64,000 bases of DNA from the NCBI GenBank assembly GCA_963674825.1, contig OY771587.1:2240001-2304000 (forward strand). The letters run 5' to 3'. Under the pieces are notes generated by a model. That model made no database searches. It was not told the DNA's origin and saw only the letters and a list, made by a program, of their open reading frames with translations. A program made the position numbers and the translations under genes. How positions within the stretch are numbered: position 1 is the stretch's first letter; every line of letters begins with the position of its first letter. Shown here piece after piece: positions 32,400 through 61,758 of the stretch. This stretch comes from Candidatus Cloacimonadales bacterium. Its GTDB lineage: Bacteria > Cloacimonadota > Cloacimonadia > Cloacimonadales > JAIOQZ01.

Positions 32400-33608
32400 C
32401 TAATCGATTTTCAATTCACCGTATTTTCCGTCGTATCCGGGTGGATCAAACCGGAAATGGCCAGCCTGAACGTGACAGATAGCTTGAAGAACATGATCGG
32501 GTATAACGTGAGAAAGCTCTGCTAAGAGGTCATCGGAAGTCCACAGCGCGATTTCAGAGGGATAGACGGACATAATGGCGTCGAAGGTGGAACGGACTTT
32601 CTTCGAGGATGCGTTTTTCACACCGAAAGCAGCAGCGATAACTTCCACCAGGGGTATCAGGTGGAGGAATTTTCGCGGAAGCGGTTTCAGAGATTCGTCT
32701 TGCAGCGACTTACTGCGGTGGAGAACGCCCTGGTGCATGGGCTTTCCGCAGATAGTGCAGCGATAATCTTTCGGTGGATCGCTGTAGAATATGGTGTGGG
32801 TGTCCTTGTCGTGCCCGGTCATGAAGTATCGACCTTCGGCAGGATTAAACTCGGCTGTCAGGTGCACGTTGTTACCACGTAAAGCGTCGATGATACCCCG
32901 GTAATCGAAGGTAGCTGCGTCGAGGATGGTGAATTCCCGACCGATGCGGTTGAGGGCAGCACTATGGCAGTCGCTGTTGGATATCATGGTGAGTCTGTGG
33001 AAATCGGGGATGGTTCCGAGCATGGAAGGGTCAGCGCTGAGCCCGGTCTCGATTACGCGGATATTGGGCGTGAAATCGCCGTAGAACTCGGTAATAGAGC
33101 GGAGGTTGTTTTTACTGCCCATGATGCCGTCGGGTGTCATGACGTGCGCAGGTATGATCTCGATATCAGGATGTACGTCCTGCATTTCGAAGAGGCGGTC
33201 TTGTAGTTGGGCTGGATTCTCTGTGACGATGAATGGCCTGCCGATGGTGTTCTTGTCACCGTGTCGCTGCATGATCCGCTGCATCTTCTGGATGGATGCG
33301 AAATCAGGGAAGAGGATGACGTGATGCGCGACGGTGCGGTTTGTGTAGCCCTCGATCTGCGTGGAGAGGATCACCTCGGTTTGTAATAGGAAGCGTGAGG
33401 AATCGCCCTTCAGCGCGAAGAGTCCCGATTCCTCTTCGCGCAACAGAGCTTGTAATTCTTGCGTACGGACGGGGAGGAGACAGTCGCCGGTACCGAAGAC
33501 ATCGATTCCCTTGAGTTTCATCGTCCGGGAGACGTCTTCGAGGCAAATCTGTCCAACGCCACCCGCATAACCGGAATGCGAGTGGAGATCGACCGCAATT
33601 CTCTTCAT
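32400..33608 (-). CDS. PHP-domain endonuclease Q-like protein
   Basis: DLHSHS, GTGD, PAHVMTP, ETGLSAD, SNSDCHS, GRE, CTICGK....GV..R, PGYDG.YG. Confidence 0.8.
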   Translation of the reverse strand: MKRIAVDLHSHSGYAGGVGQICLEDVSRTMKLKGIDVFGTGDCLLPVRTQELQALLREEESGLFALKGDSSRFLLQTEVILSTQIEGYTNRTVAHHVILFPDFASIQKMQRIMQRHGDKNTIGRPFIVTENPAQLQDRLFEMQDVHPDIEIIPAHVMTPDGIMGSKNNLRSITEFYGDFTPNIRVIETGLSADPSMLGTIPDFHRLTMISNSDCHSAALNRIGREFTILDAATFDYRGIIDALRGNNVHLTAEFNPAEGRYFMTGHDKDTHTIFYSDPPKDYRCTICGKPMHQGVLHRSKSLQDESLKPLPRKFLHLIPLVEVIAAAFGVKNASSKKVRSTFDAIMSVYPSEIALWTSDDLLAELSHVIPDHVLQAICHVQAGHFRFDPPGYDGKYGELKID

Positions 33609-35318
33609 TTATTTCAGTGCTTCGAGTTCCTCACGAACGAAATCGACGAGGCTCTTAATATAGTCAGCGCTGAAGTCAAACCGGATACCGGCTGCTTCGT
33701 AGAGCTCATTAACCGGCTTGGTGTAAAGCAGGCTGAGGAAGTTTTCGTACTGATCGACGGCCTTCTTGGGATCCTGGCGGTAGTTACGGTAGATGGAGAG
33801 CGCGCCAAGCTGCGAGATACCGTACTCGATGTAGTAGAACGGCGTTTCGAAGATGTGCAGCTGACGTTTCCAAAGGTTTTTGCGATTCTCTGTCAGGCCG
33901 CTCCAGTCTGTGCCGGAGTCGAAGCGTTCGCTGAGTTCCAGGAAGAACTTCGCCCGTTCTTCGGGAGTGTGGTCGGGATTGAGATAAATCCAGTGCTGGA
34001 AGGCGTCGACGACCATGCACCACGGCAGGAATGTCAGCGTTCCTTCGAGCTGCTCGCGTTTCGCTTTTTTAAGGTCTTCTTCGTCGCTGTAGAATTCATT
34101 CCAGAAATCCATCGAGATCAGCTCCATGCTCATGGAAGCAAGCTCGGCTACTTCGCTAGGTGTATCGCGGTAGAAGCTGATTGGCGTGTTGTTCATCTTG
34201 GAAGCATGCAGCGCGTGGCCTGCTTCGTGGAGCAGCGTGCTGACGTCGTCCTGAACGCCGACTGAATTCATGAAGATGAAGGATGCTCCCCATTCGCTGA
34301 GCGGATAGTTGTACCCGCCCGGAGCCTTGCCTTTGCGGTTGTCGAGATCGAGGAAACCAGTGTTTCTCATGAGCTCGAGCTGCTTGCCGAACTCAGGTTT
34401 GATCTTGCTGAGGATGCGGATCGATTTCTCGGTCAGCTCTTCAGTGTCCTCGAATGGCTTGAGGATTTTTCCATCGAGATCGACGGAAGTGTCCCATGGG
34501 CGCAGTACGTCGAGACCGAGTTTCGCTTTGCGTTCTTCGTTGAGCTCTTTGCAGAAAGGCACAACGTGTTTTTCTACCGATTCATGGAACTGGTAGAGAT
34601 CTTCGGGTGTGTAGCTGAAGCGGCCTTTCGCGCGATGCGTATAATCTCGATAATTGTCGAAACCGCAATTCTTTGCCATTTGAATACGTAATGCTTTCAT
34701 CGCGTCGAAGAGTTCATCGAATTCCGCGCTTTTCTCGAGGTATTTTCCCTGGACAAGCTGCCATACTTCTTCACGCACTTTGCGGTCGGTCTTCTTCAGG
34801 TAGATCGAAAGCTGGCGCATTGTCTGCTCTTTGCCGTCGTATTCGGCGGTCAGGCTACCGGAGAGTGCGCCGTATTTGTTGGCGATCTCGCGTTCCTGCT
34901 GGCTGAGCGGCGTGTTTTCTTCGCGGAAAAGCTCGATATCGACCGCGATGATCTTGTTCAGAAGGTCGTATTTGTCTTTGTCCAACTCGTGGCGGTAAGG
35001 GCTGTCGTAGAATTTCTTCATAAGCTCGAACGACGGCTTCCTGGTATTGCTGACGATTTCCGAGTAGAAGGTGTTGAAAGCCTCTTCTTTTTCGGGCTGA
35101 TCGGCGTGACAAGACATTGCGATGTAGCGATGGGCCATCTCATCAGCCGTGATGAAGGAAAGTTCGCTGTACTGCTTGAGCAATTCGATCAGATCGTCGG
35201 CTGAATTGATCTCCATGTCGAGAAGGCGCTCAAATTCTGCTACGACTTGTTCTTTGATGGAGGGATCAAACGATTCCGAGTAGAATCTTCTTGGGTATTT
35301 CGTCAATTTGTCTGACAT
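33609..35318 (-). CDS. pepF: M3 family oligoendopeptidase F
   Basis: GKAPGGY, HEAGH, EVAELASMSME, HIFETPFYYIEY. Confidence 0.9.
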   Translation of the reverse strand: MSDKLTKYPRRFYSESFDPSIKEQVVAEFERLLDMEINSADDLIELLKQYSELSFITADEMAHRYIAMSCHADQPEKEEAFNTFYSEIVSNTRKPSFELMKKFYDSPYRHELDKDKYDLLNKIIAVDIELFREENTPLSQQEREIANKYGALSGSLTAEYDGKEQTMRQLSIYLKKTDRKVREEVWQLVQGKYLEKSAEFDELFDAMKALRIQMAKNCGFDNYRDYTHRAKGRFSYTPEDLYQFHESVEKHVVPFCKELNEERKAKLGLDVLRPWDTSVDLDGKILKPFEDTEELTEKSIRILSKIKPEFGKQLELMRNTGFLDLDNRKGKAPGGYNYPLSEWGASFIFMNSVGVQDDVSTLLHEAGHALHASKMNNTPISFYRDTPSEVAELASMSMELISMDFWNEFYSDEEDLKKAKREQLEGTLTFLPWCMVVDAFQHWIYLNPDHTPEERAKFFLELSERFDSGTDWSGLTENRKNLWKRQLHIFETPFYYIEYGISQLGALSIYRNYRQDPKKAVDQYENFLSLLYTKPVNELYEAAGIRFDFSADYIKSLVDFVREELEALK

Positions 35319-37462
35319 GATAACTCCTTATATTTCAATTCTCTTAAAGCAATGACAAGGGAGTTCTCCTGGAACTCCACGGGGTTGATAAAAATCTCGA
35401 TTTCAATAGGCTTACCTGCTTTGGTTTTCGTGCAAGCAGGGAACCATCGTTCAGATGACCCGATCAGGTAGGCGATGAGGCTTTTCCTGATCGCTTCGAT
35501 CATATCGAGTGTCACATACAGGTAGAACGACGACATCATTTCCTGGGCGTGCTTCATGTCGAAGAGCCTCAGACAGGCCTGATTTACTTCCAGAATCTCC
35601 ATTTTATCGAGGCGCTTCTTGACTTCACCAAGATTAGATTCGATCAGTGTATTCGGATCAACGTTTTTTTCGTATATGACTTTTTTGAGCTTGTGTATTG
35701 TCGTCGGATCCTGCACGATCAGCATGGGCAGTGGGTTGTTCTCGAACAGGATTCGGTTCATGATATATTGCTCGTCGAGTCGTTCGCTTGTGTGACGATA
35801 GTCGTTGATATCGATAGCACTGCTGAAGATTCTTTCCATCACTCCCTGCTCATTTTTCTGGACAATCAGATTGCTCGACAACCAGCGATAATCATTGAAC
35901 TTGGTTCGGATGCGGTATGCGAGTGTTGTTGTGGTGAGCTTTTGGTTGTTCTCCTCCGCTTCGAAGAAAAAATTCCGTAGCAGGCTTCGATCCTCAGGAT
36001 GAACAAGCTCCATCATAGATTCATATGTGAGTGAATATAGTTCCTCATAGGTAAATCCATAAAGGCTGATGGCGGTGTCGTTTGCAAACTCGACTTTATT
36101 CTTGATCGCATCAAACGAGAAAATCGAAAGATTCGAAACGTTCATAAGGACATCAAGGATATCACCGTGCTCGAAGCTGAAACCAGTAACAACCTTGATG
36201 TAGTAGGTTATATCGGTAACGATTGCCATAACGCCATTGGGATTACCGCTTAGGTCGCGAATCGTAGTAGGGGAGATCGTCAGCCAGATACGTTCACCGT
36301 TTTTCTTCACGATGGTTATCTCATATTTACGATCTCCCATTTGTGGCCGTTCATCGCGCATTCGGTTGACCTTCTGCATCATGGACGGCTCGAAGAAATC
36401 CCATATCTTACTGCCGAGATAGTCCTCTTCCGAGTACCCGGTCATTTCGCACAGCTTACGGTTTACGAGAGTAAAACGTTCATCGCGATCGATGATCACC
36501 ATGCCTTCATTCATGTTGTCCATAAGAGCACGGTAATTATGCATGGTTTCGTGAAGTTGCCGGCGGGAAGAGTCTCTGTCGATGAAGCTGGCGATCCAGT
36601 TTGTGAAAACGAGTAACGTATCCAGCGTGAGGGTTCCGACAGCCTTCATTTCAATCTGAATGGCAATGATTCCTATGGGACGCTCTTCGCTAAGCATGGG
36701 GATGAGGTGATTCGCAGGCACATCGGAGTGTTGCCATGGAAAGAAATGCTGCTCGCCTTCATCAGATTTCAGCTCGCCAGGTATTGCACGCCTGGAGATT
36801 GTCGGCGGAAACTGATTCTGCGCTTCGGTTCGTTGGCAAGAGGATAGAAGACGGAGCTTTTGCGAATCTGTAAAAGTGTAAACCGCACAGTTGAGGATCC
36901 CTTTTATCCGGCAGATCGCTTCCAGGATTTCGTTGAGAGATTCTTGGGTGTTGCTCACTTTCTGCAAGGCATTCAGAATCTCATACTGTACTTGCAGGAT
37001 GTCCTCTGCACGGTCGTAATTCTCCTTGTAGCTGTTGCCATTATCTTCTTCCTTATGAAGGAACCTGACGGATCTTAAATCCGGCTTGGGTTCTGGTTCC
37101 TTTTCCGGATTTATCGCTTTTCCAAAGTCAAAAAATATAAGCAGGCCATAGTCTCTTTTTTCGATCCAAACACAGGATACAATGAGATTTCTCCCTTCTG
37201 TAGTATTTCCCTGAGGTGAATAATGGATGGAGAAGTTACCAGGCCGATTCTCGTTTAACCTTGGAATAATCTGAGTTCCGAGAACATTATCGAGCTCTTT
37301 ACCGACAGTTGTGATCCTGTTTTGTTTGAAAAAGCGATTGAAAGCGTCGTTCGTGAAGACGATTCTACCATAAGGCTGATGGATCATCACTGTTGGCTCG
37401 ATAATCTCCTGCATCACCTTGCGGTAATGAGCGAGCTTTTCTTCCCGGTGTGGACTATCCAT
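35303..37462 (-). CDS. Multi-PAS (+GAF-like) sensor protein with no recognisable output domain
   Basis: PAS motifs (VNRKLCEMTGYSEE..G, VHPEDR, KKNGERIW, FENNPLPM, VNQAC..LF); no HisKA, GGDEF or HD motif before the stop. Confidence 0.75.
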   Translation of the reverse strand: MDSPHREEKLAHYRKVMQEIIEPTVMIHQPYGRIVFTNDAFNRFFKQNRITTVGKELDNVLGTQIIPRLNENRPGNFSIHYSPQGNTTEGRNLIVSCVWIEKRDYGLLIFFDFGKAINPEKEPEPKPDLRSVRFLHKEEDNGNSYKENYDRAEDILQVQYEILNALQKVSNTQESLNEILEAICRIKGILNCAVYTFTDSQKLRLLSSCQRTEAQNQFPPTISRRAIPGELKSDEGEQHFFPWQHSDVPANHLIPMLSEERPIGIIAIQIEMKAVGTLTLDTLLVFTNWIASFIDRDSSRRQLHETMHNYRALMDNMNEGMVIIDRDERFTLVNRKLCEMTGYSEEDYLGSKIWDFFEPSMMQKVNRMRDERPQMGDRKYEITIVKKNGERIWLTISPTTIRDLSGNPNGVMAIVTDITYYIKVVTGFSFEHGDILDVLMNVSNLSIFSFDAIKNKVEFANDTAISLYGFTYEELYSLTYESMMELVHPEDRSLLRNFFFEAEENNQKLTTTTLAYRIRTKFNDYRWLSSNLIVQKNEQGVMERIFSSAIDINDYRHTSERLDEQYIMNRILFENNPLPMLIVQDPTTIHKLKKVIYEKNVDPNTLIESNLGEVKKRLDKMEILEVNQACLRLFDMKHAQEMMSSFYLYVTLDMIEAIRKSLIAYLIGSSERWFPACTKTKAGKPIEIEIFINPVEFQENSLVIALRELKYKELSCQTN

Positions 37463-38408
37463 CTGCTTCCTCGCCTGTGGCGTTGAGAACCGTACTGATA
37501 GAGACATCGCTGGCCCCGGATCTCTTTCGGAAGAGGTTTACAAGCAGCTCGCCGATAAGACCAATCGAAAGGAACTGCATTCCGATCATGATCATGAGCA
37601 GGCCGAGTAGCAGAAGCGGACGATTGGAAAGTGGGTGTCCGAAACCAAGCTTGAGGACGGTGAGATAAGCTTCGATCACGAATCCAATTGCCATCATGAC
37701 GGTTCCCCATCCTCCAAAAAGGTAAAGCGGACTGCGATTGTAGCCAGTGATGAGCCTAACAGTGAGTAAATCGAGGAATCCGCGCATGTAGCGCTCGAAT
37801 CCGTACTTGGTTTTGCCAAATTCTCGCGGTCTGTGATCAACCGGGATTTCGGTTACACGAAAGCCTTTGGAATCAGCCAAAACCGGGATATAACGATGCA
37901 ATTCGCCATAGACGTCGATCTCTTCGGTAATCTCTCTACGATAGGCCTTAAAGCCGCAATTGTAGTCGTGCAGGCGTAGGCCGAATACCCATGAGGTAAC
38001 GTTATTGAAGAAACGTGACAGAATCTTTTTCTCAAGCGGATCGTGACGCTTCTTCTTCCATCCGGAAACCAGATCGAACCCTTCATCGAGTTTTTCGAGG
38101 AATTTCCCGATCTCGGCGGGATTATCCTGCAAATCTGCGTCGAGTGTAAAGACGATTTCGCCCGTAGCATAGTGGAACCCCTGCTTCAGCGCGGCTGATT
38201 TACCGAAGTTCCGTCGGAAGCGGATGACCGTTACGCGTTGGTCTTCCTTGGCGAGCTCTTGCATCTTCGCGAAGCTGCTGTCTGTGCTGCCATCGTCGAT
38301 GAAAACGAACTGCTTCTCATAACCTTCGGTGTACTGGTTTATTTCGTCGTATAGACGTCGGATGGTGTCTTCTTCGTTGCAGACAGGTATCACAAATGAT
38401 AGCTTCAT
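37455..38408 (-). CDS. GT2 polyprenol-phosphate glycosyltransferase (DPM1/GtrB/ArnC-like)
   Basis: VIPV.NE, DDGSTD, RNFGKSAA, DADLQD, D.NCGFKAY, two C-terminal TM helices. Confidence 0.9.
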   Translation of the reverse strand: MKLSFVIPVCNEEDTIRRLYDEINQYTEGYEKQFVFIDDGSTDSSFAKMQELAKEDQRVTVIRFRRNFGKSAALKQGFHYATGEIVFTLDADLQDNPAEIGKFLEKLDEGFDLVSGWKKKRHDPLEKKILSRFFNNVTSWVFGLRLHDYNCGFKAYRREITEEIDVYGELHRYIPVLADSKGFRVTEIPVDHRPREFGKTKYGFERYMRGFLDLLTVRLITGYNRSPLYLFGGWGTVMMAIGFVIEAYLTVLKLGFGHPLSNRPLLLLGLLMIMIGMQFLSIGLIGELLVNLFRKRSGASDVSISTVLNATGEEADG

Positions 38409-38411
38409 ACC

Positions 38412-39014
38412 TTACCCCGGGATGAAAATATTGGTTATCGCCATGATAATCGCGGCGAAGACCGGAATCTTGATGTTATCGTCAACCTGGATACGGGATG
38501 CTTCAGCGATGGTTGTCGCCAGCGCTCCGGTAAAGCACAGCGCGGGATGTATCCCGAATGCCAGCCCGAACGCGAAGCTGCTGGTGAAGCACGCGAGGCT
38601 CCCTTCCAGGCTCTTGCTGGTTCCTCTGATTTTGCGCTTTCCCATCAGAATTCCAATGATAGCCGCGAACGTATCGCCTACAGCTAAGGACGAGAGCGCG
38701 AAGAAAGCGATCATGTCGCCCGGAAAGAATGCAAAGCAAACCAGCGAGGAGACCATCAGGTAGGTTGCGCCGGTGAAATTGTTCACCTCGTGTTTACGCA
38801 ACAGGATTCCGAACAGGTGGTAGAATATCCGGCGGAATGTCTTGTTCTCCAGCCGGATGATTTCGATAGCCATTGCAATGATGGTCAATGGCAAGAGGAT
38901 CAGAAACATCAGCTTCCGATCCTCGTGTAAAATATAGAGATATGACAACGGAATCACGAGCGAGGAGATGTGGATCGTCTTGCGAAAAGCCTCTTTCAGC
39001 TTACGTGATTCCAT
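38412..39014 (-). CDS. CTP-dependent isoprenol/diacylglycerol kinase (dolichol/phytol kinase-like)
   Basis: RKTIH, GD..AA..G...GK......KSLEGS, DDN..IP motifs; multi-TM. Confidence 0.8.
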   Translation of the reverse strand: MESRKLKEAFRKTIHISSLVIPLSYLYILHEDRKLMFLILLPLTIIAMAIEIIRLENKTFRRIFYHLFGILLRKHEVNNFTGATYLMVSSLVCFAFFPGDMIAFFALSSLAVGDTFAAIIGILMGKRKIRGTSKSLEGSLACFTSSFAFGLAFGIHPALCFTGALATTIAEASRIQVDDNIKIPVFAAIIMAITNIFIPG

Positions 39015-39020
39015 GGCTCA

Positions 39021-40211
39021 TTATACGTTCAGCTTGCTGACGACAAAAGCCTTTGCAAGCTCGGCGACGAGGATTGGATCCTTCTTGATCGCCTGGAAAA
39101 AGATTTCGCGGAGCGTGAGTTTATCGGTCGGAAGCGTATTGCACATGGCGATCAACCGATTGAGGTTTTCGTCGCCGTAGTGCAGGTATTTGCTCTTCAT
39201 CTTGTACATCAACCGGTGGTTCGCTCCCAGGGCTTTGTCCCATTCCTTGTAGTAACGGGAGAGGAACTTCTTGCTGAAGTCCCTTTTCTCGACAGCCATT
39301 GCAGCCGTTTCACCGGCTTTCGCGCCACCAAACATCGCCGTGATGATGCCTCCGCCGGTCATGGGATTGACCTGCCGCGCCGCATCGCCAGCGAGCATGA
39401 TGCGCTCGGAAGCCATATCTTTAAGCGGAAGTCCGGTGGGGATTCCGCCACATACGATGGCATTGATCTGGCCATTCGGGAAACGCTTTTGCACGAAATT
39501 GTCGAGATAGGAGATCGGCCCGTGATCTTTGATCATGTTGCCCGAAAGCCCCAGTCCGACGTTTGCGGCAGTCTTGGACTTCGGGAATATCCAGGTATAA
39601 CCTCCCGGCGCCATGTGGTCACCGAAGAAGAATTCACAATATCTCTGATCGGCATCGATGTTTGTCATCGTGTACTGGATGGAAGTTTCAATATCTTCCA
39701 AATCGCATGCGGTGTCGATACCAGCCCAACGCCCCACGCGTGATTCTACACCGTCAGCGCCGATAACCAGGTCGCATTTCACCACATGTTCCTGTCCGAG
39801 GTGACGATATCTTACGCCGCAGATTTGTTCATTATGATATTCGAGTCCGATCGCATCCGCTTTAGTGAGCATGTGTGCTCCTTCAGCGCAGGCGAGGTTA
39901 CAGAGCTCGCGATCAAAGATACGCCGTTCAAGGATATAGCCAGCGCCTATGTTGTGCAGCTCGAGCATAGTTCCATCGGGTGCGTAGATACGTGCGGCGT
40001 CAATTTCGACTGCGATCCATTTGGGATCAGGTTTGATAAACTGCGCGAGTCCCTTGTGAGACACGCCTTCTGCGCAACGTACCGGAATGCCGGGTTCGCG
40101 GTCGCGTTCCAGGATCAGAACGCTTGCTCCGCCTTTTGCTGCGTAGCGCGCAGCTGTGCTGCCGGCAGGACCTGAGCCGATTACGACTACATCATATCGA
40201 TTCTCGATCAT
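39021..40211 (-). CDS. Geranylgeranyl reductase family FAD oxidoreductase (archaeal DGGGPL reductase-like)
   Basis: GSGPAG, P..CAEG, IGADG..S, APGGYTWIFP (PxxYxWxFP), GDAA..VNP.TGGGI. Confidence 0.88.
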   Translation of the reverse strand: MIENRYDVVVIGSGPAGSTAARYAAKGGASVLILERDREPGIPVRCAEGVSHKGLAQFIKPDPKWIAVEIDAARIYAPDGTMLELHNIGAGYILERRIFDRELCNLACAEGAHMLTKADAIGLEYHNEQICGVRYRHLGQEHVVKCDLVIGADGVESRVGRWAGIDTACDLEDIETSIQYTMTNIDADQRYCEFFFGDHMAPGGYTWIFPKSKTAANVGLGLSGNMIKDHGPISYLDNFVQKRFPNGQINAIVCGGIPTGLPLKDMASERIMLAGDAARQVNPMTGGGIITAMFGGAKAGETAAMAVEKRDFSKKFLSRYYKEWDKALGANHRLMYKMKSKYLHYGDENLNRLIAMCNTLPTDKLTLREIFFQAIKKDPILVAELAKAFVVSKLNV

Positions 40212-40381
40212 GATTGACCTCCCGAAATTGCTTTGAATGGGCAAATCGTTTCGCATTTTCCGCACTCGATGCAAGTATTCAGGTCAATGTACACACGAAA
40301 TTCGGTGACTCGAATAGCATCGACCGGACATACCGCGACGCAGGTGCCGCAAAGTCCGCAAATCTCATGATCGATTTTCAT
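40208..40381 (-). CDS. 2x[4Fe-4S] ferredoxin (57 aa; absent from the ORF track)
   Basis: Manual translation MKIDHEICGLCGTCVAVCPVDAI...TCIECGKCETICPFKAISGGQS; two CxxCxxCxxxCP motifs; GGAGA RBS; ATGA overlap with the reductase. Confidence 0.93.
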   Translation of the reverse strand: MKIDHEICGLCGTCVAVCPVDAIRVTEFRVYIDLNTCIECGKCETICPFKAISGGQS

Positions 40382-40401: not shown

Positions 40402-41943
40402 TTATTCGCTGAATTGGTGATCCAGAATCACCATATTTCCATCGTTGCGAAGCTGTATCACAACGTCGTATTTAATATAGGATTCCATCGTGTTTTTACC
40501 GGAAAAGAGCAGTCCTGTGCTGTCCATATGTTCCTTGGTAAATCCCCGTACGAGGAATACCGGTTCCGGGTTTCCCTGTCCGAAAGGCTGGAAACGGTCG
40601 AGGTCGTTGAGCATCTGTTCGTGGATTTGATTCGGGGCGATCAGTGCGTCGATTTCAATCTTGCGTGAAAGCTCAATCTCATTACGGTGATCGTCCACGA
40701 ACTCACGGAAGCATTCCTTGAATTCATCGAGACGTTCCTCATGGATGGTGAAGCCGGCAGCGCGTGCGTGGCCGCCGTATTGCACCAGAATATCGCTACA
40801 ATGGTTGAACGAATCGATCAGATTAAAACCATCTGTGCAGCGTGCTTCGCCGACGATGAGGCCCTTCTTTCTCTTCAGGAAGATTACAGGAATCTTGAAA
40901 ATGCTGGCTACAATTGATGCTGAAAGGCCATAGAGCGCGAAAGGTATGCGATCCTGTTCGTCGAAGTAGAAGTGATAGAATCCTTCCGGCTTGATGCTCA
41001 TGACGATGTCGAGCACGACATTGATCTTCCGCTCATATTCGTTCTTCTCCATGAAGAGACGCTTGAGGTGATCGCGTTTTTCCACAGGATTTGCCACTAA
41101 CAACTTCATGCCGCGATTCTCGCCGTTACGCATACGACCGCTGGATAGGATCTTGTAGGTAAAAGCGATGAAATTCATTTTGGAACGTTTGTCTTCAGGC
41201 GTGTAGTAGTACTGACTGAGAAAATGTGCCGTATCGTCGAAGATGGATTTCCATTTATCCAGTACTTCCAAGCAGATGATACGGTTAACGCCGTCGAGCG
41301 GAGCTTTATCCGCGACAAGCCCTACCATGACCCAGAACATATAACTGGGGCTTGGTTCCACATCGCATTCACGGGCGATTTGCCGAATCAGAAACCATGT
41401 GACTCCAACGCCGGCCAGCATCGGATAGGGATACTGGCAGTCTGCCTGCTTCGGATTGACGATCGCGTAAGCTTCGGGCAGTTCGTCCTGTACCAGATGA
41501 TGATCGGTGATGATGGTGTCGATACCAGCTTCATTCAGTGCTTTCACGCCTTCGAAAGACGAGCTGCAGCCATCGACGGTAATCACAAGATCGGCCTTCA
41601 ATTCCTTCGCCTTCCGGACGAAAGACGGCTGGATACCATGATGATCGACCAGCCGGTTTGGGATATAGTAAAAGTGGTTTTGCGACCCGAGCTTTTCAAG
41701 GTAGTCGAAAAGGATGTAAGTGCTAGTTATCCCATCGGGATCGTCGTCACCGTATATTACGATGGTTTCTTTATCGATCAGGGCCTGGATTACGCGTTTG
41801 GCGGCCTTCTCAAGGTCCTTCATCAGCGTGTCTTCAGGCAGATCGTCAAGGGTAACCTTGAATGTTTCTTCCCGGTAGTCACGCTTGGCTACAAGTTGCT
41901 CGATTAGTGTACGGTCGCCGGGATCGTTCCAAATCCATTTCAT
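40402..41943 (-). CDS. recJ: RecJ-like DHH/DHHA1 ssDNA exonuclease
   Basis: YGDDDPDG, ITVD, TDHH, VNP, GGHARAAG, PFGQGNPEP. Confidence 0.85.
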   Translation of the reverse strand: MKWIWNDPGDRTLIEQLVAKRDYREETFKVTLDDLPEDTLMKDLEKAAKRVIQALIDKETIVIYGDDDPDGITSTYILFDYLEKLGSQNHFYYIPNRLVDHHGIQPSFVRKAKELKADLVITVDGCSSSFEGVKALNEAGIDTIITDHHLVQDELPEAYAIVNPKQADCQYPYPMLAGVGVTWFLIRQIARECDVEPSPSYMFWVMVGLVADKAPLDGVNRIICLEVLDKWKSIFDDTAHFLSQYYYTPEDKRSKMNFIAFTYKILSSGRMRNGENRGMKLLVANPVEKRDHLKRLFMEKNEYERKINVVLDIVMSIKPEGFYHFYFDEQDRIPFALYGLSASIVASIFKIPVIFLKRKKGLIVGEARCTDGFNLIDSFNHCSDILVQYGGHARAAGFTIHEERLDEFKECFREFVDDHRNEIELSRKIEIDALIAPNQIHEQMLNDLDRFQPFGQGNPEPVFLVRGFTKEHMDSTGLLFSGKNTMESYIKYDVVIQLRNDGNMVILDHQFSE

Positions 41944-41949
41944 GTGTTA

Positions 41950-43176
41950 TTACTTTTTGTCCGGTTGCGGTATATCGCGATGTTCGATGTTCTTTTTGCG
42001 TTTTTTGAATATGTCGAATCCCTTGGTTCCGATGGTGAACATGACGGTCTTTTCCTGAAGACCATGATCATTCTTATCGCCACGAAGGGTGTATTGAACT
42101 GCGAAGTGTATCTCTTTTCCGGGTGATTTGAATGGCACAGAGAACCCTCCGCTGAATCCCATCTCATTTACGCGATTCTCGTTTACTTCAAAGGGAAGCT
42201 GGCGATAGCTGAAGCCGACACGTACGGGCAAGCTTGCATACCAGTCCTGACGTTCGTACATGGGATCATAAGCGATTCCGATGCTGGCACGGTAGGAATT
42301 GAGATTCTCCACGGCGTTATCGGTTTTTTCCCATAGCTCGTAGTGGAAGTCGCTCGAGAATTTGAATTTCTGTTTGAGCCGCCAGGTTACGCTGAGGCTG
42401 TAGCGTTCGGGGAGCTCGAAGGAGCTGTCGTCCAGATCGCTCACATAGGGATCGAAAACGTAGTTGAATTCGGTGTCGCCTTCCAGCTTGACCTCGGGGC
42501 GATATGCCACGCCGAAAGAGAGATTGCTGAAGCGTTTGCTGAGGCCGATGTTCCAGCTGTAGTTGTGGAAGTAGTGGTCGGTCTCGTACTTAGCGTCAAC
42601 ATAGTCGTCGTCTTCAAAATCAGCCTCCACATAGCGTGAGCGCTGCCCGGTGTAGTAGTTAACGCCGAGTCCGACGTTGATCCAATCCGTATGCAGAGCA
42701 TAGATTGCGTCCAGCCGGTAGATGTTGGATTCGATCCGGTTGATTTCCGTCACGTTCGTGGTTCCGTTGGAGAATGTGTATGAGCGTGTGATTTCGCTCT
42801 CGTAATTACCAGCGGATACAGTGTTGAAGTTGAACGCGAAGTGGTGATTGCCAAAGGGCACTGCGACGGAGAAGTAGGGCAGAAAAAGCCCATCGTCGCG
42901 GAATGAGTTACCAGCTTTATCGGAATAATACATATAGCCAAACGTGACGCCCGAGGAGAAAACCACGCTGCTGCACGAAGTGGCCAGTGACGGATTACCG
43001 AATCCGGTGTTGAAACGATAGAGGTCTGAGTAACCTGTTTCGCCCATTCCGAGGGAATATGTATCGACGCTATAGTACTGCTCGGCAAAGCCATAGCTCG
43101 AAAAAATCGAGTTCGCTGCCAGCATGCCTGATACCGCCAATATAAGCGCGAGAATGCAATATCTTTTTCCTGTCAT
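41950..43176 (-). CDS. Outer-membrane beta-barrel protein, FadL/PorV-like
   Basis: Signal peptide; S..S.YG, LGMG.TG....NPS plug motif; amphipathic strands. Confidence 0.65.
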   Translation of the reverse strand: MTGKRYCILALILAVSGMLAANSIFSSYGFAEQYYSVDTYSLGMGETGYSDLYRFNTGFGNPSLATSCSSVVFSSGVTFGYMYYSDKAGNSFRDDGLFLPYFSVAVPFGNHHFAFNFNTVSAGNYESEITRSYTFSNGTTNVTEINRIESNIYRLDAIYALHTDWINVGLGVNYYTGQRSRYVEADFEDDDYVDAKYETDHYFHNYSWNIGLSKRFSNLSFGVAYRPEVKLEGDTEFNYVFDPYVSDLDDSSFELPERYSLSVTWRLKQKFKFSSDFHYELWEKTDNAVENLNSYRASIGIAYDPMYERQDWYASLPVRVGFSYRQLPFEVNENRVNEMGFSGGFSVPFKSPGKEIHFAVQYTLRGDKNDHGLQEKTVMFTIGTKGFDIFKKRKKNIEHRDIPQPDKK

Positions 43177-61670: not shown

Positions 61671-61758
61671 TGGTGCCGAAGGCCGGACTCGAACCGGCAC
61701 GCCGCAAAACGGCGGTGGATTTTGAGTCCACTGCGTCTACCAGTTTCACCACTTCGGC
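61671..61758 (-). tRNA. tRNA-Leu (anticodon CAA)
   Basis: GCCGAAG acceptor stem, GTGGA-CT-CAA-AA-TCCAC anticodon arm, long variable arm, GGTTCGAGTCC T-loop, encoded CCA. Confidence 0.97.

Follow-up and report, generated by a model that had tools for sequence, protein, structure and literature searches.

Two gene pairs, a ferredoxin with an archaeal-type geranylgeranyl reductase and a kinase-like protein with a glycosyltransferase, adjoin in Cloacimonadota

We analyzed four adjoining genes in a 64,000-nucleotide stretch of a Candidatus Cloacimonadales bacterium genome (assembly GCA_963674825.1, contig OY771587.1, positions 2,240,001 to 2,304,000; hereafter, the window). All four lie on the minus strand and are numbered by window position: a 2x[4Fe-4S] ferredoxin (40208-40381, 57 aa); a geranylgeranyl reductase (GGR; 39021-40211, 396 aa, with an ATG start at 40211); a SEC59/DGK1/VTE5-type membrane protein, so called from the names of its homologues and its invariant residues (38412-39014, 200 aa; hereafter, the kinase); and a family 2 glycosyltransferase (GT2; 37455-38408, 317 aa) of the ArnC/GtrB type. 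Across the phylum, these genes are not gained and lost together but fall into two pairs, namely ferredoxin with GGR and kinase with GT2. In the reading that we prefer, with a probability of about 0.65, the first pair carries out ferredoxin-driven saturation of archaeol-type ether lipids, and the second is a housekeeping undecaprenyl-phosphate kinase/glycosyltransferase pair beside it. On the sequence evidence, the GGR most likely finishes an archaeal-style ether-lipid pathway that is already published and is encoded elsewhere in the genome, and the kinase-GT2 pair resembles routine housekeeping of the envelope.

An earlier note on this DNA had described the four genes as one archaeal-style module with a single saturate-phosphorylate-glycosylate route. 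The genes, the ATGA overlap, and the PxxYxWxFP motif of the GGR that it reported were all seen. The ferredoxin TGA (40208-40210) overlaps the GGR ATG (40209-40211), and the spacings along the four genes are -4, 6, and 3 nt, the last two being the gaps of a few bases in that description. The ferredoxin, which the note described as missed by an ORF track, does appear in the mechanical list of open reading frames used here. The genome itself is a single 3.89-Mb contig, 99.6% complete. In the comparisons below, G denotes a genome (G000 being the own genome), L a locus, f a family, and g a genus.

Identity of the reductase and its ferredoxin

The GGR passes the general geranylgeranyl reductase family model TIGR02032 (223.5 bits; cut-off, 158.8), and its top model is NF041160, built for the digeranylgeranylglycerophospholipid (DGGGPL) reductase of Thermoplasmatales. 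No cut-off of the archaeal equivalog models was reached, with scores of 276 bits for NF041160 (cut-off, 780), 173 for NF041080 (580), and 90 for NF041385 (700); these models are lineage-specific, so the missed cut-offs lower formal membership and not functional likeness. Against other families, the scores were 74 bits for MenJ (cut-off, 700), 83 for ChlP (505), 140 for BchP-ChlP (343), and 38 for FixC (610). The best solved relative is the Thermoplasma acidophilum DGGGPL reductase (PDB 3oz2; E = 1.7e-73), which the GGR resembles in (i) a full-length match, (ii) the FAD motifs, (iii) the conserved Cys, and (iv) the PxxYxWxFP motif. Moreover, it holds every motif listed for archaeal GGRs in the accessible text of PMC10821996 (GxGxxG, a conserved Cys, RxxxD, PxxYxWxFP, and LxGD), as GSGPAG at residues 12-17, C46, ERRIFD at 95-100 (RxxFD), PGGYTWIFP at 202-210, and LAGD at 273-276. 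Unlike the archaeal DGGGPL reductases, it has a bacterial host, belongs to a wider bacterial clade, and scores far under the equivalog cut-offs.

The nearest named GGR clusters (50%-identity representatives, 20 of 150 of which were looked up) come from Ca. Syntrophoarchaeum caldarius (46%), Methanosarcinales (44%), and Delongbacteria (42%). In a FastTree tree of 123 rows, which has moderate deep supports and leaves out characterized MenJ, ChlP, and FixC sequences, the Cloacimonadota GGRs group together (0.85, some unnamed rows included) and fall within a bacterial clade (0.90) that they share with Ignavibacteria, Fibrobacteria, Delongbacteria, and Poribacteria. This clade sits, in turn, in a group with the GGRs of Methanosarcinia, Thermoplasmata, and Methanothermococcus (0.75-0.93). 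The placement fits an old bacterial lineage of euryarchaeal type and not a recent import. Judged by its best model, the 3oz2 match, the motifs, and the tree with euryarchaeal reductases, the GGR is of the di-geranylgeranylglyceryl phosphate (DGGGP) or DGGGPL reductase type of Euryarchaeota, not of the MenJ, ChlP, or FixC type, and the earlier note's archaeal-type assignment stands. An identity as menaquinone reductase, chlorophyll reductase, or FixC was rejected on the low model scores and on the single UbiA-family match in the genome, which resembles a DGGGP synthase (DGGGPS). Recent transfer of the four-gene block from archaea was likewise rejected.

The ferredoxin (Fer4, E = 7.9e-17) carries two CxxCxxCxxxCP motifs, which are kept in all 38 aligned orthologues. 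In-frame fusions of ferredoxin and GGR occur as four copies in three genomes (G014, G020, and, twice, G024), with lengths of 467-487 aa and from two families (L140:4486-5895 in G014, L141:2678-4093, L109:5680-7143, and L111:4240-5643); G024, which is 82% complete, holds two copies of the locus. Because of these four natural fusions, the ferredoxin is very probably the partner of the GGR, as the earlier note had supposed, and it is probably a dedicated electron donor. According to a review (PMC9385802, in the text accessible to us), a neighboring ferredoxin raises the activity of the Methanosarcina acetivorans GGR in E. coli, and the synteny of GGR and ferredoxin is mostly kept in Euryarchaeota. 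As in M. acetivorans, a 4Fe-4S gene adjoins the GGR here; unlike that system, the Cloacimonadota GGR has a bacterial host, and natural fusions occur. The fusions, the joint loss described below, and the Methanosarcina precedent together suggest that electrons flow from the ferredoxin to the GGR. The locus has no ferredoxin in two f3 genomes, whose GGR copies diverge the most (32-34%).

Ether-lipid genes and the distribution of the two pairs

Elsewhere in G000, we found (i) a geranylgeranylglyceryl phosphate (GGGP) synthase (GGGPS; G000:59622-60410; TIGR01769, 223.9 bits, over the cut-off of 161.55) and, unlinked to it, (ii) a short-chain polyprenyl synthase and a DGGGPS-like gene side by side (G000:2599204-2600967). 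The DGGGPS-like gene scores 177.5 bits against NF009521, below the cut-off of 296 and far above the UbiA, ChlG, and EboC models. It is the sole UbiA-family match in this 99.6% complete genome, so no prenylquinone or chlorophyll substrate is evident for the GGR. The genome also holds CdsA next to UppS, along with PlsY, a PlsC-like acyltransferase, a PgsA-like CDP-alcohol phosphatidyltransferase, and PgpA, and a separate CdsA was present in all five genomes tested. Since DGGGP is already phosphorylated, and CdsA, the PgsA-like protein, and PgpA are present, the ether-lipid route would need neither the kinase nor GT2.

Ether-lipid genes with euryarchaeal-like GGRs are already published for Cloacimonadota. 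The main text of Villanueva et al. (PMC7852524) reports, for Cloacimonetes, the GGGP and DGGGP synthases, a polyprenyl synthase, a Euryarchaeota-like GGR, and no CarS or EgsA, with CdsA proposed as a substitute; G000, from the same phylum, holds the same gene set. That work found that, in E. coli, the GGGP and DGGGP synthases of Cloacimonetes yielded phosphatidylglycerol-archaeol in the 8-fold unsaturated form only, and on its strength we infer ether-lipid synthase activity in G000. The same main text does not describe this locus, ferredoxin-GGR fusions, or joint loss; the word "kinase" is absent from it, and "ferredoxin" appears only in a reference title. Our literature searches likewise found neither the ferredoxin partner nor the fusions nor the joint loss, which the supplements of that paper may hold, and no paper was found on the four-gene locus or on an archaeol kinase. 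A preprint (10.1101/2021.10.08.463351) states, in its accessible part, that roughly one in four of 46 genomes has GGGP/DGGGP synthases and that lineages diverging later have lost them.

The ferredoxin-GGR-kinase-GT2 order is intact in 27 of 30 loci (from the own genome and 26 of the 40 relatives searched; 11 families); of the other three, two are without the kinase only, and one is a paralogue. GGGPS and DGGGPS are present in the identical 27 of 41 genomes. The synteny is thus conserved and the gene order no product of chance, and the sequence-level outcomes named in the earlier note as telling against it (a GGR clustering with menaquinone reductases or FixC, a genome without ether-lipid genes, or unconserved synteny) were not seen. 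In a larger set of 131 genomes, each at least 90% complete, we counted DGGGPS, GGR, and the kinase (the GGGPS counts come from the 41-genome set). DGGGPS and GGR were both present in 52 genomes and both absent from 66, with DGGGPS alone in two and GGR alone in 11, so that GGR is found in 52 of the 54 genomes with DGGGPS and is absent from 66 of the 77 without it. Before tabulating, we set aside four DGGGPS hits that were weak (28-34% identity) and two GGR hits to paralogues only (27-29%), and a DGGGPS match in two overlapping pieces (G083:C80:3836-4644; a frameshift or assembly error) was counted as present. Both genomes with DGGGPS and no GGR, G030 and G033, are also without the kinase. The GT2 match of G030 lies at a contig edge, and an assembly gap likely explains its missing GGR; G033 gave no DNA match.

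The kinase follows another pattern, being present in 121 of the 131 genomes, including all 66 double negatives, and in 70 of the 77 without DGGGPS. GGR occurs without the kinase in eight genomes, namely seven of f12 and G094, the latter with DGGGPS and an assembled ferredoxin-GGR-GT2 locus. At the level of loci, kinase-GT2 without an adjoining GGR was seen in 13 of those read, and in 10 loci without ferredoxin-GGR the upstream neighbor, RecJ, directly abuts kinase-GT2, which marks a clean absence. In all five f15 loci (L127-L131), thiamine genes separate GGR and kinase (thiE and thi4, with thiC and thiD in three), and glycine cleavage P genes precede the ferredoxin; in f14, the run reads secA-kinase-GT2-adk.

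The GGR also changes in pace. Measured against a panel drawn from other families, its identity is 0.45-0.61 in genomes with DGGGPS and 0.34-0.44 in those without, while that of GT2 stays at 0.55-0.66. Dividing GGR distance by GT2 plus RecJ distance gives 0.46-0.94 for 14 pairs with DGGGPS and 1.23-2.05 for five pairs without it, the pairs being hand-picked and three of the five sharing genomes. This rate shift is consistent with selection having relaxed, or the substrate having changed, once the synthases were gone. Further, all seven GGRs aligned from genomes without DGGGPS have Phe, Met, or Pro in place of the Ser at position 51.

Outside the phylum, where 46 of 80 GGR loci were examined, a ferredoxin adjoins GGR in 13 of 18 close loci (archaeal and bacterial) and in 2 of 27 distant ones. 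The kinase was found at 0 of 45 of these GGR loci, and neither kinase nor GT2 was found at any of the 18 close ones. In Poribacteria, ferredoxin-GGR lies directly upstream of a GGGP synthase in 12 of 15 loci, with a DGGGPS-like gene within 1.5 kb in five; in L161, ferredoxin-GGR, GGGP synthase, and such a gene form a single run.

As a separate observation, the Poribacteria GGR, which shares an operon with ferredoxin and GGGP synthase, is, by its sequence, probably a selenocysteine enzyme. A GGR match was present in 16 of 26 Poribacteria genomes, and each of the 14 full-length ones contains a single in-frame TGA. This codon coincides with the conserved cysteine in 14 of the 15 loci read (L161:4142-4144; L237-L249 and L253), and in L250 the TGA was not located by regular expression. 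In 13 of the 14 loci, the TGA is followed by 351-352 open codons. A similar hairpin is predicted behind it in all 14, with one compensatory pair change; single-sequence folds of this region were not significant (z = -1.6 and -0.9). In G138, the one genome tested, SelB scored over its cut-off, and TGA is used as the ferredoxin stop. Our literature search found no report on a selenocysteine GGR in Poribacteria. A longer UbiA-family protein (334-355 aa), which is not a canonical DGGGPS, is encoded near ferredoxin-GGR at L161:905-1972 (Poribacteria) and L167:2791-3795; in L167, whose record is labeled Cytophagia, a CDP-alcohol phosphatidyltransferase gene follows GGR.

The kinase, the glycosyltransferase, and the surrounding gene run

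Database records name homologues of the kinase variously as members of the SEC59/DGK1/VTE5 family (NCBI and JGI), as dolichol or phytol kinases, or as phosphatidate cytidylyltransferases. The protein itself has no Pfam match at E = 0.01 and matches PF01148 weakly (E = 0.022); 29 of 53 homologues match that model. Its invariant residues are R11, K12, H15, D114, K134, and G138. The N-terminal R11-K12-H15 matches the R-K-x-x-H "charged clamp" modeled for Plasmodium PolK (PMC10849223, accessible text). Residues 114-138, which read D114..A117..G121..G125-x7-SKSLEG, come near the CTP-binding motif given for DOLK, DxxAxxxGxxxG-x8-KKTxEG (PMC13586052, accessible text); it departs from DOLK/Sec59 in having a spacer shortened by one residue and a Ser in place of the first Lys. 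The protein thus shows the features of the SEC59/DGK1/VTE5 family, namely a multi-helix membrane protein with RKxxH and DxxAxxxGxxxG..KxxEG, with these two deviations. At only 200 aa, it differs from CTP-dependent prenol kinases (DOLK/Sec59, VTE5/FOLK, and PolK), and its C-terminal motif is common to it and CdsA.

The predicted structure is all-helical (pLDDT 94.7). Its closest folds are CdsA (Z = 9.0, rmsd 5.9, 163 aligned residues) and CarS (Z = 7.8, rmsd 3.4, 99 aligned), scores that are middling for a model of a helical protein; no kinase structure of the SEC59/DGK1/VTE5 family was among the fold matches listed, and Foldseek gave no match at E <= 0.001. The clusters neighboring it in the Atlas are bacterial (Cloacimonadota, Zixiibacteriota, Fidelibacterota, and Elusimicrobiota). 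As the genome has a complete CdsA in addition, kinase activity appears more likely than cytidylyltransferase activity. DgkA/UdpK (PF01219) was found in 0 of 5 genomes, including G026, which itself has no kinase, so a salvage role for undecaprenol or diacylglycerol may apply. Among 80 metagenome loci of the kinase, all 30 close ones (47-58% identity) have GT2 and 12 of these have GGR, and the 50 distant ones (30-41% identity) showed neither, in line with two separate pairs; SecA is present at 17 of the 80.

GT2 has a GT-A domain (PF00535, E = 1.7e-33) with a DxD motif (DAD at residue 90) and C-terminal membrane helices. Against profiles it scores 192 bits for ArnC, 163 for PgfS, 85 for archaeal AglJ, and 63 for the halophile dolichol-phosphate hexose transferase, all below cut-off. 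In the PDB, it matches ArnC (E = 7e-52, 180 bits) and sll0501, which we take to be GtrB (E = 1e-30, 110 bits), over the full length, including the membrane helices and DxD, whereas the match to an archaeal dolichol-phosphate-mannose synthase (E = 2e-19, 73 bits) spans 202 residues only. By these scores, GT2 is a polyprenyl-phosphate glycosyltransferase of the ArnC/GtrB type, much nearer to ArnC/GtrB than to DPM1; of the earlier "DPM1/GtrB-like" label, the GtrB part therefore fits much better than the DPM1 part. It differs from ArnC/GtrB systems in falling below the ArnC and PgfS cut-offs and in having no adjoining flippase or GT-C gene. G000 has GtrA-like and PMT-like genes at other sites; of four relatives tested, two gave no GtrA match and three no PMT_2 match, so these searches gave no conserved GT2 partner. 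A UDP-glucose pyrophosphorylase gene directly follows GT2 in several relatives, and in G000 it is unlinked (C1:2087790-2089142, L346; PF01704, 452 bits). An archaeal origin of the kinase or GT2 was rejected, as neither shows archaeal character in the tests run.

The four genes belong to a nine-gene co-directional run on the minus strand, which comprises, in order, a BamG-like outer-membrane barrel (41950-43176; NF053685, 131 bits, cut-off 250), a RecJ-like DHH exonuclease (40402-41943; TIGR00644, 326 bits, below cut-off), ferredoxin, GGR, kinase, GT2, a multi-PAS protein of about 720-734 aa with a weak GAF match and no output domain that could be recognized (35303-37507; its gene overlaps the end of GT2), an M3 peptidase, and an unassigned 402-aa reading frame (32400-33608) that starts DLHSHS and has no Pfam match. 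We presume from its motif that the last resembles a PHP-type metal hydrolase. All eight gaps in the run are 20 nt or less, and 49% of the 1917 co-directional neighbor pairs in G000 are equally close (by crude ORF calls); close packing is therefore not peculiar to the four genes, and spacing alone does not define a module. RecJ is a conserved upstream neighbor outside the lipid function and marks the site of ferredoxin-GGR loss in relatives; the BamG-like barrel keeps its place as first gene in many relatives throughout the order; and, of the loci read, only those of the own genus have the PAS protein behind GT2. Neither promoter-like (8 versus 11.3 in shuffles) nor terminator-like sites (15 versus 11.9) are enriched. 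A tRNA gene (61674-61758, minus strand) is the sole Rfam match in the window.

Proposed roles and their alternatives

We propose that two pairs with separate functions neighbor each other within a housekeeping run that is inherited vertically. The ferredoxin would hand low-potential electrons to the FAD of the GGR, which would reduce the geranylgeranyl chains of DGGGP or its headgroup derivatives. DGGGP would come from the GGGP synthase and the polyprenyl synthase/DGGGP synthase pair and would probably be activated by the bacterial CdsA in place of CarS. The predicted product is a saturated archaeol-type ether phospholipid, in a membrane that would also hold ester lipids, as PlsY and the PlsC-like protein are present. 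The kinase would use CTP to phosphorylate a free lipid alcohol, for which undecaprenol is the likeliest candidate and diacylglycerol or archaeol are others, and GT2 would load a nucleotide sugar, possibly UDP-glucose, onto undecaprenyl phosphate for transfer outside the cytoplasm.

Several findings weigh against this proposal. The 11 genomes that keep GGR without DGGGPS hold more diverged copies (loci L112, L113, and L136 in f12; L110 and L111 in f2; L134, L135, and L304, f3-like); among the seven aligned, the Cys and PxxYxWxFP are kept, RxxFD is changed in three, and five keep the ferredoxin. G008, G026, and G031 belong here and have no UbiA-family match at all, so another GGR substrate or slow decay may apply in these lineages. 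The losses are, moreover, not independent. In a tree of neighboring genes, f2, f3, f12, and perhaps f14 (possibly by long-branch attraction) form one clade (support, 0.998), so that roughly two to four events lie behind the 131-genome table; G005 (81% complete) and G010 (90%) are possible separate losses. In G000, CarS, which the earlier note named alongside the two synthases that are present, has 0 matches, and there is no clear glycerol-1-phosphate dehydrogenase. Four partial PF13685 matches (E = 6e-8 to 5e-4) were considered for that role and rejected, being read as ordinary iron alcohol dehydrogenases. G000 also holds a second, distant GGR-family gene (C1:1031645-1032850, L013), which is without the conserved Cys (VHTSGGSW) and is patchy in the phylum. 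Of the 50 distant metagenome kinase loci at which GT2 and GGR were not seen, many are short contigs. Finally, a single Haloferax GGR saturates both diether lipids and dolichol phosphate, its deletion costing the saturated forms of both (PMC10821996, accessible text), and GGRs are called promiscuous in the review text (PMC9385802).

The alternative that survives best, though we consider it unlikely, is that ferredoxin-GGR also or mainly saturates a polyprenol or polyprenyl phosphate, produced by the kinase and glycosylated by GT2, to give a partly saturated, dolichol-like sugar carrier, with GGR-free lineages using an unsaturated one. It would suit the retention of the four-gene order in 27 loci of 11 families, the presence of UppS, and the UDP-glucose pyrophosphorylase gene after GT2 in relatives. 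The Haloferax deletion lost saturated dolichol phosphate, and mycobacterial HepR, which reduces heptaprenyl diphosphate, offers a bacterial precedent (both from the accessible text of PMC10821996). The seven f12 genomes keep GGR with neither DGGGPS nor kinase, and the three f12 loci read have ferredoxin-GGR-GT2 in a row, with a similar gene of about 300 aa after GT2 (a lipid A acyltransferase in L112, the only one scanned). We give the same small weight to the more specific idea that ferredoxin-GGR saturates a polyprenyl carrier besides the ether lipid, with Cloacimonadota glycosylating on a partly saturated lipid phosphate provided by the kinase as a CTP-dependent dolichol-kinase homologue, and that lineages with a diverged ferredoxin-GGR-GT2 and no ether synthases left (f12 g22/g39; f2) use only that role. 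Such a shared role is hard to square with the persistence of kinase-GT2 without GGR (the kinase in 66 genomes; the pair in 13 loci read), with GGR divergence that is raised in every tested pair without DGGGPS while GT2 stays, with a GT2 that is ArnC/GtrB-like and not DPM1-like, and with the absence of any GGR-kinase-GT2 linkage seen outside the phylum.

A single route, as in the earlier note, leading to a saturated archaeal-type glycolipid or a salvage product, is more doubtful still. In it, the kinase would re-phosphorylate free archaeol or phytanol, or replace CarS, and GT2 would glycosylate the ether lipid. The missing CarS, the position of the kinase directly behind GGR, its best folds (CdsA and CarS), and the annotation of some homologues as phosphatidate cytidylyltransferase are in its favor. 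As the main reading, however, it is opposed by the 66 of 131 genomes that keep the kinase without GGR and DGGGPS, by RecJ-kinase-GT2 in 10 loci, by the thiamine genes between the pairs, and by the eight GGR-bearing genomes without a kinase. Kinase and DGGGPS also part in both directions (kept in 70 of 77 genomes without DGGGPS, missing from G094), a separate CdsA was seen in all five genomes tested, and the closest relatives of GT2 act on polyprenyl phosphate. Another isoprenoid substrate (geranylgeranyl diphosphate to phytyl diphosphate, a monoether lipid, or a prenylated molecule), with the synthase link due to shared ancestry, is comparably improbable: the few independent losses, the 11 genomes with GGR and no DGGGPS, and the promiscuity of the family would allow it, but in Poribacteria GGR is physically linked to GGGP/DGGGP synthase, the search of G000 gave no prenyltransferase for quinones or chlorophyll, and the closest solved structure is a DGGGPL reductase.

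Under the two-pair reading, the finding extends a published pathway and is not a new kind of system. The "lipid divide" debate still asks whether any bacterium in nature builds a mixed archaeal and bacterial membrane, and the locus names the missing native pair for the last step of the pathway, that is, GGR with its ferredoxin or the one-gene natural fusion. The joint loss, together with the faster divergence of GGR in genomes without the synthases, is comparative evidence for selection on the pathway as a unit.

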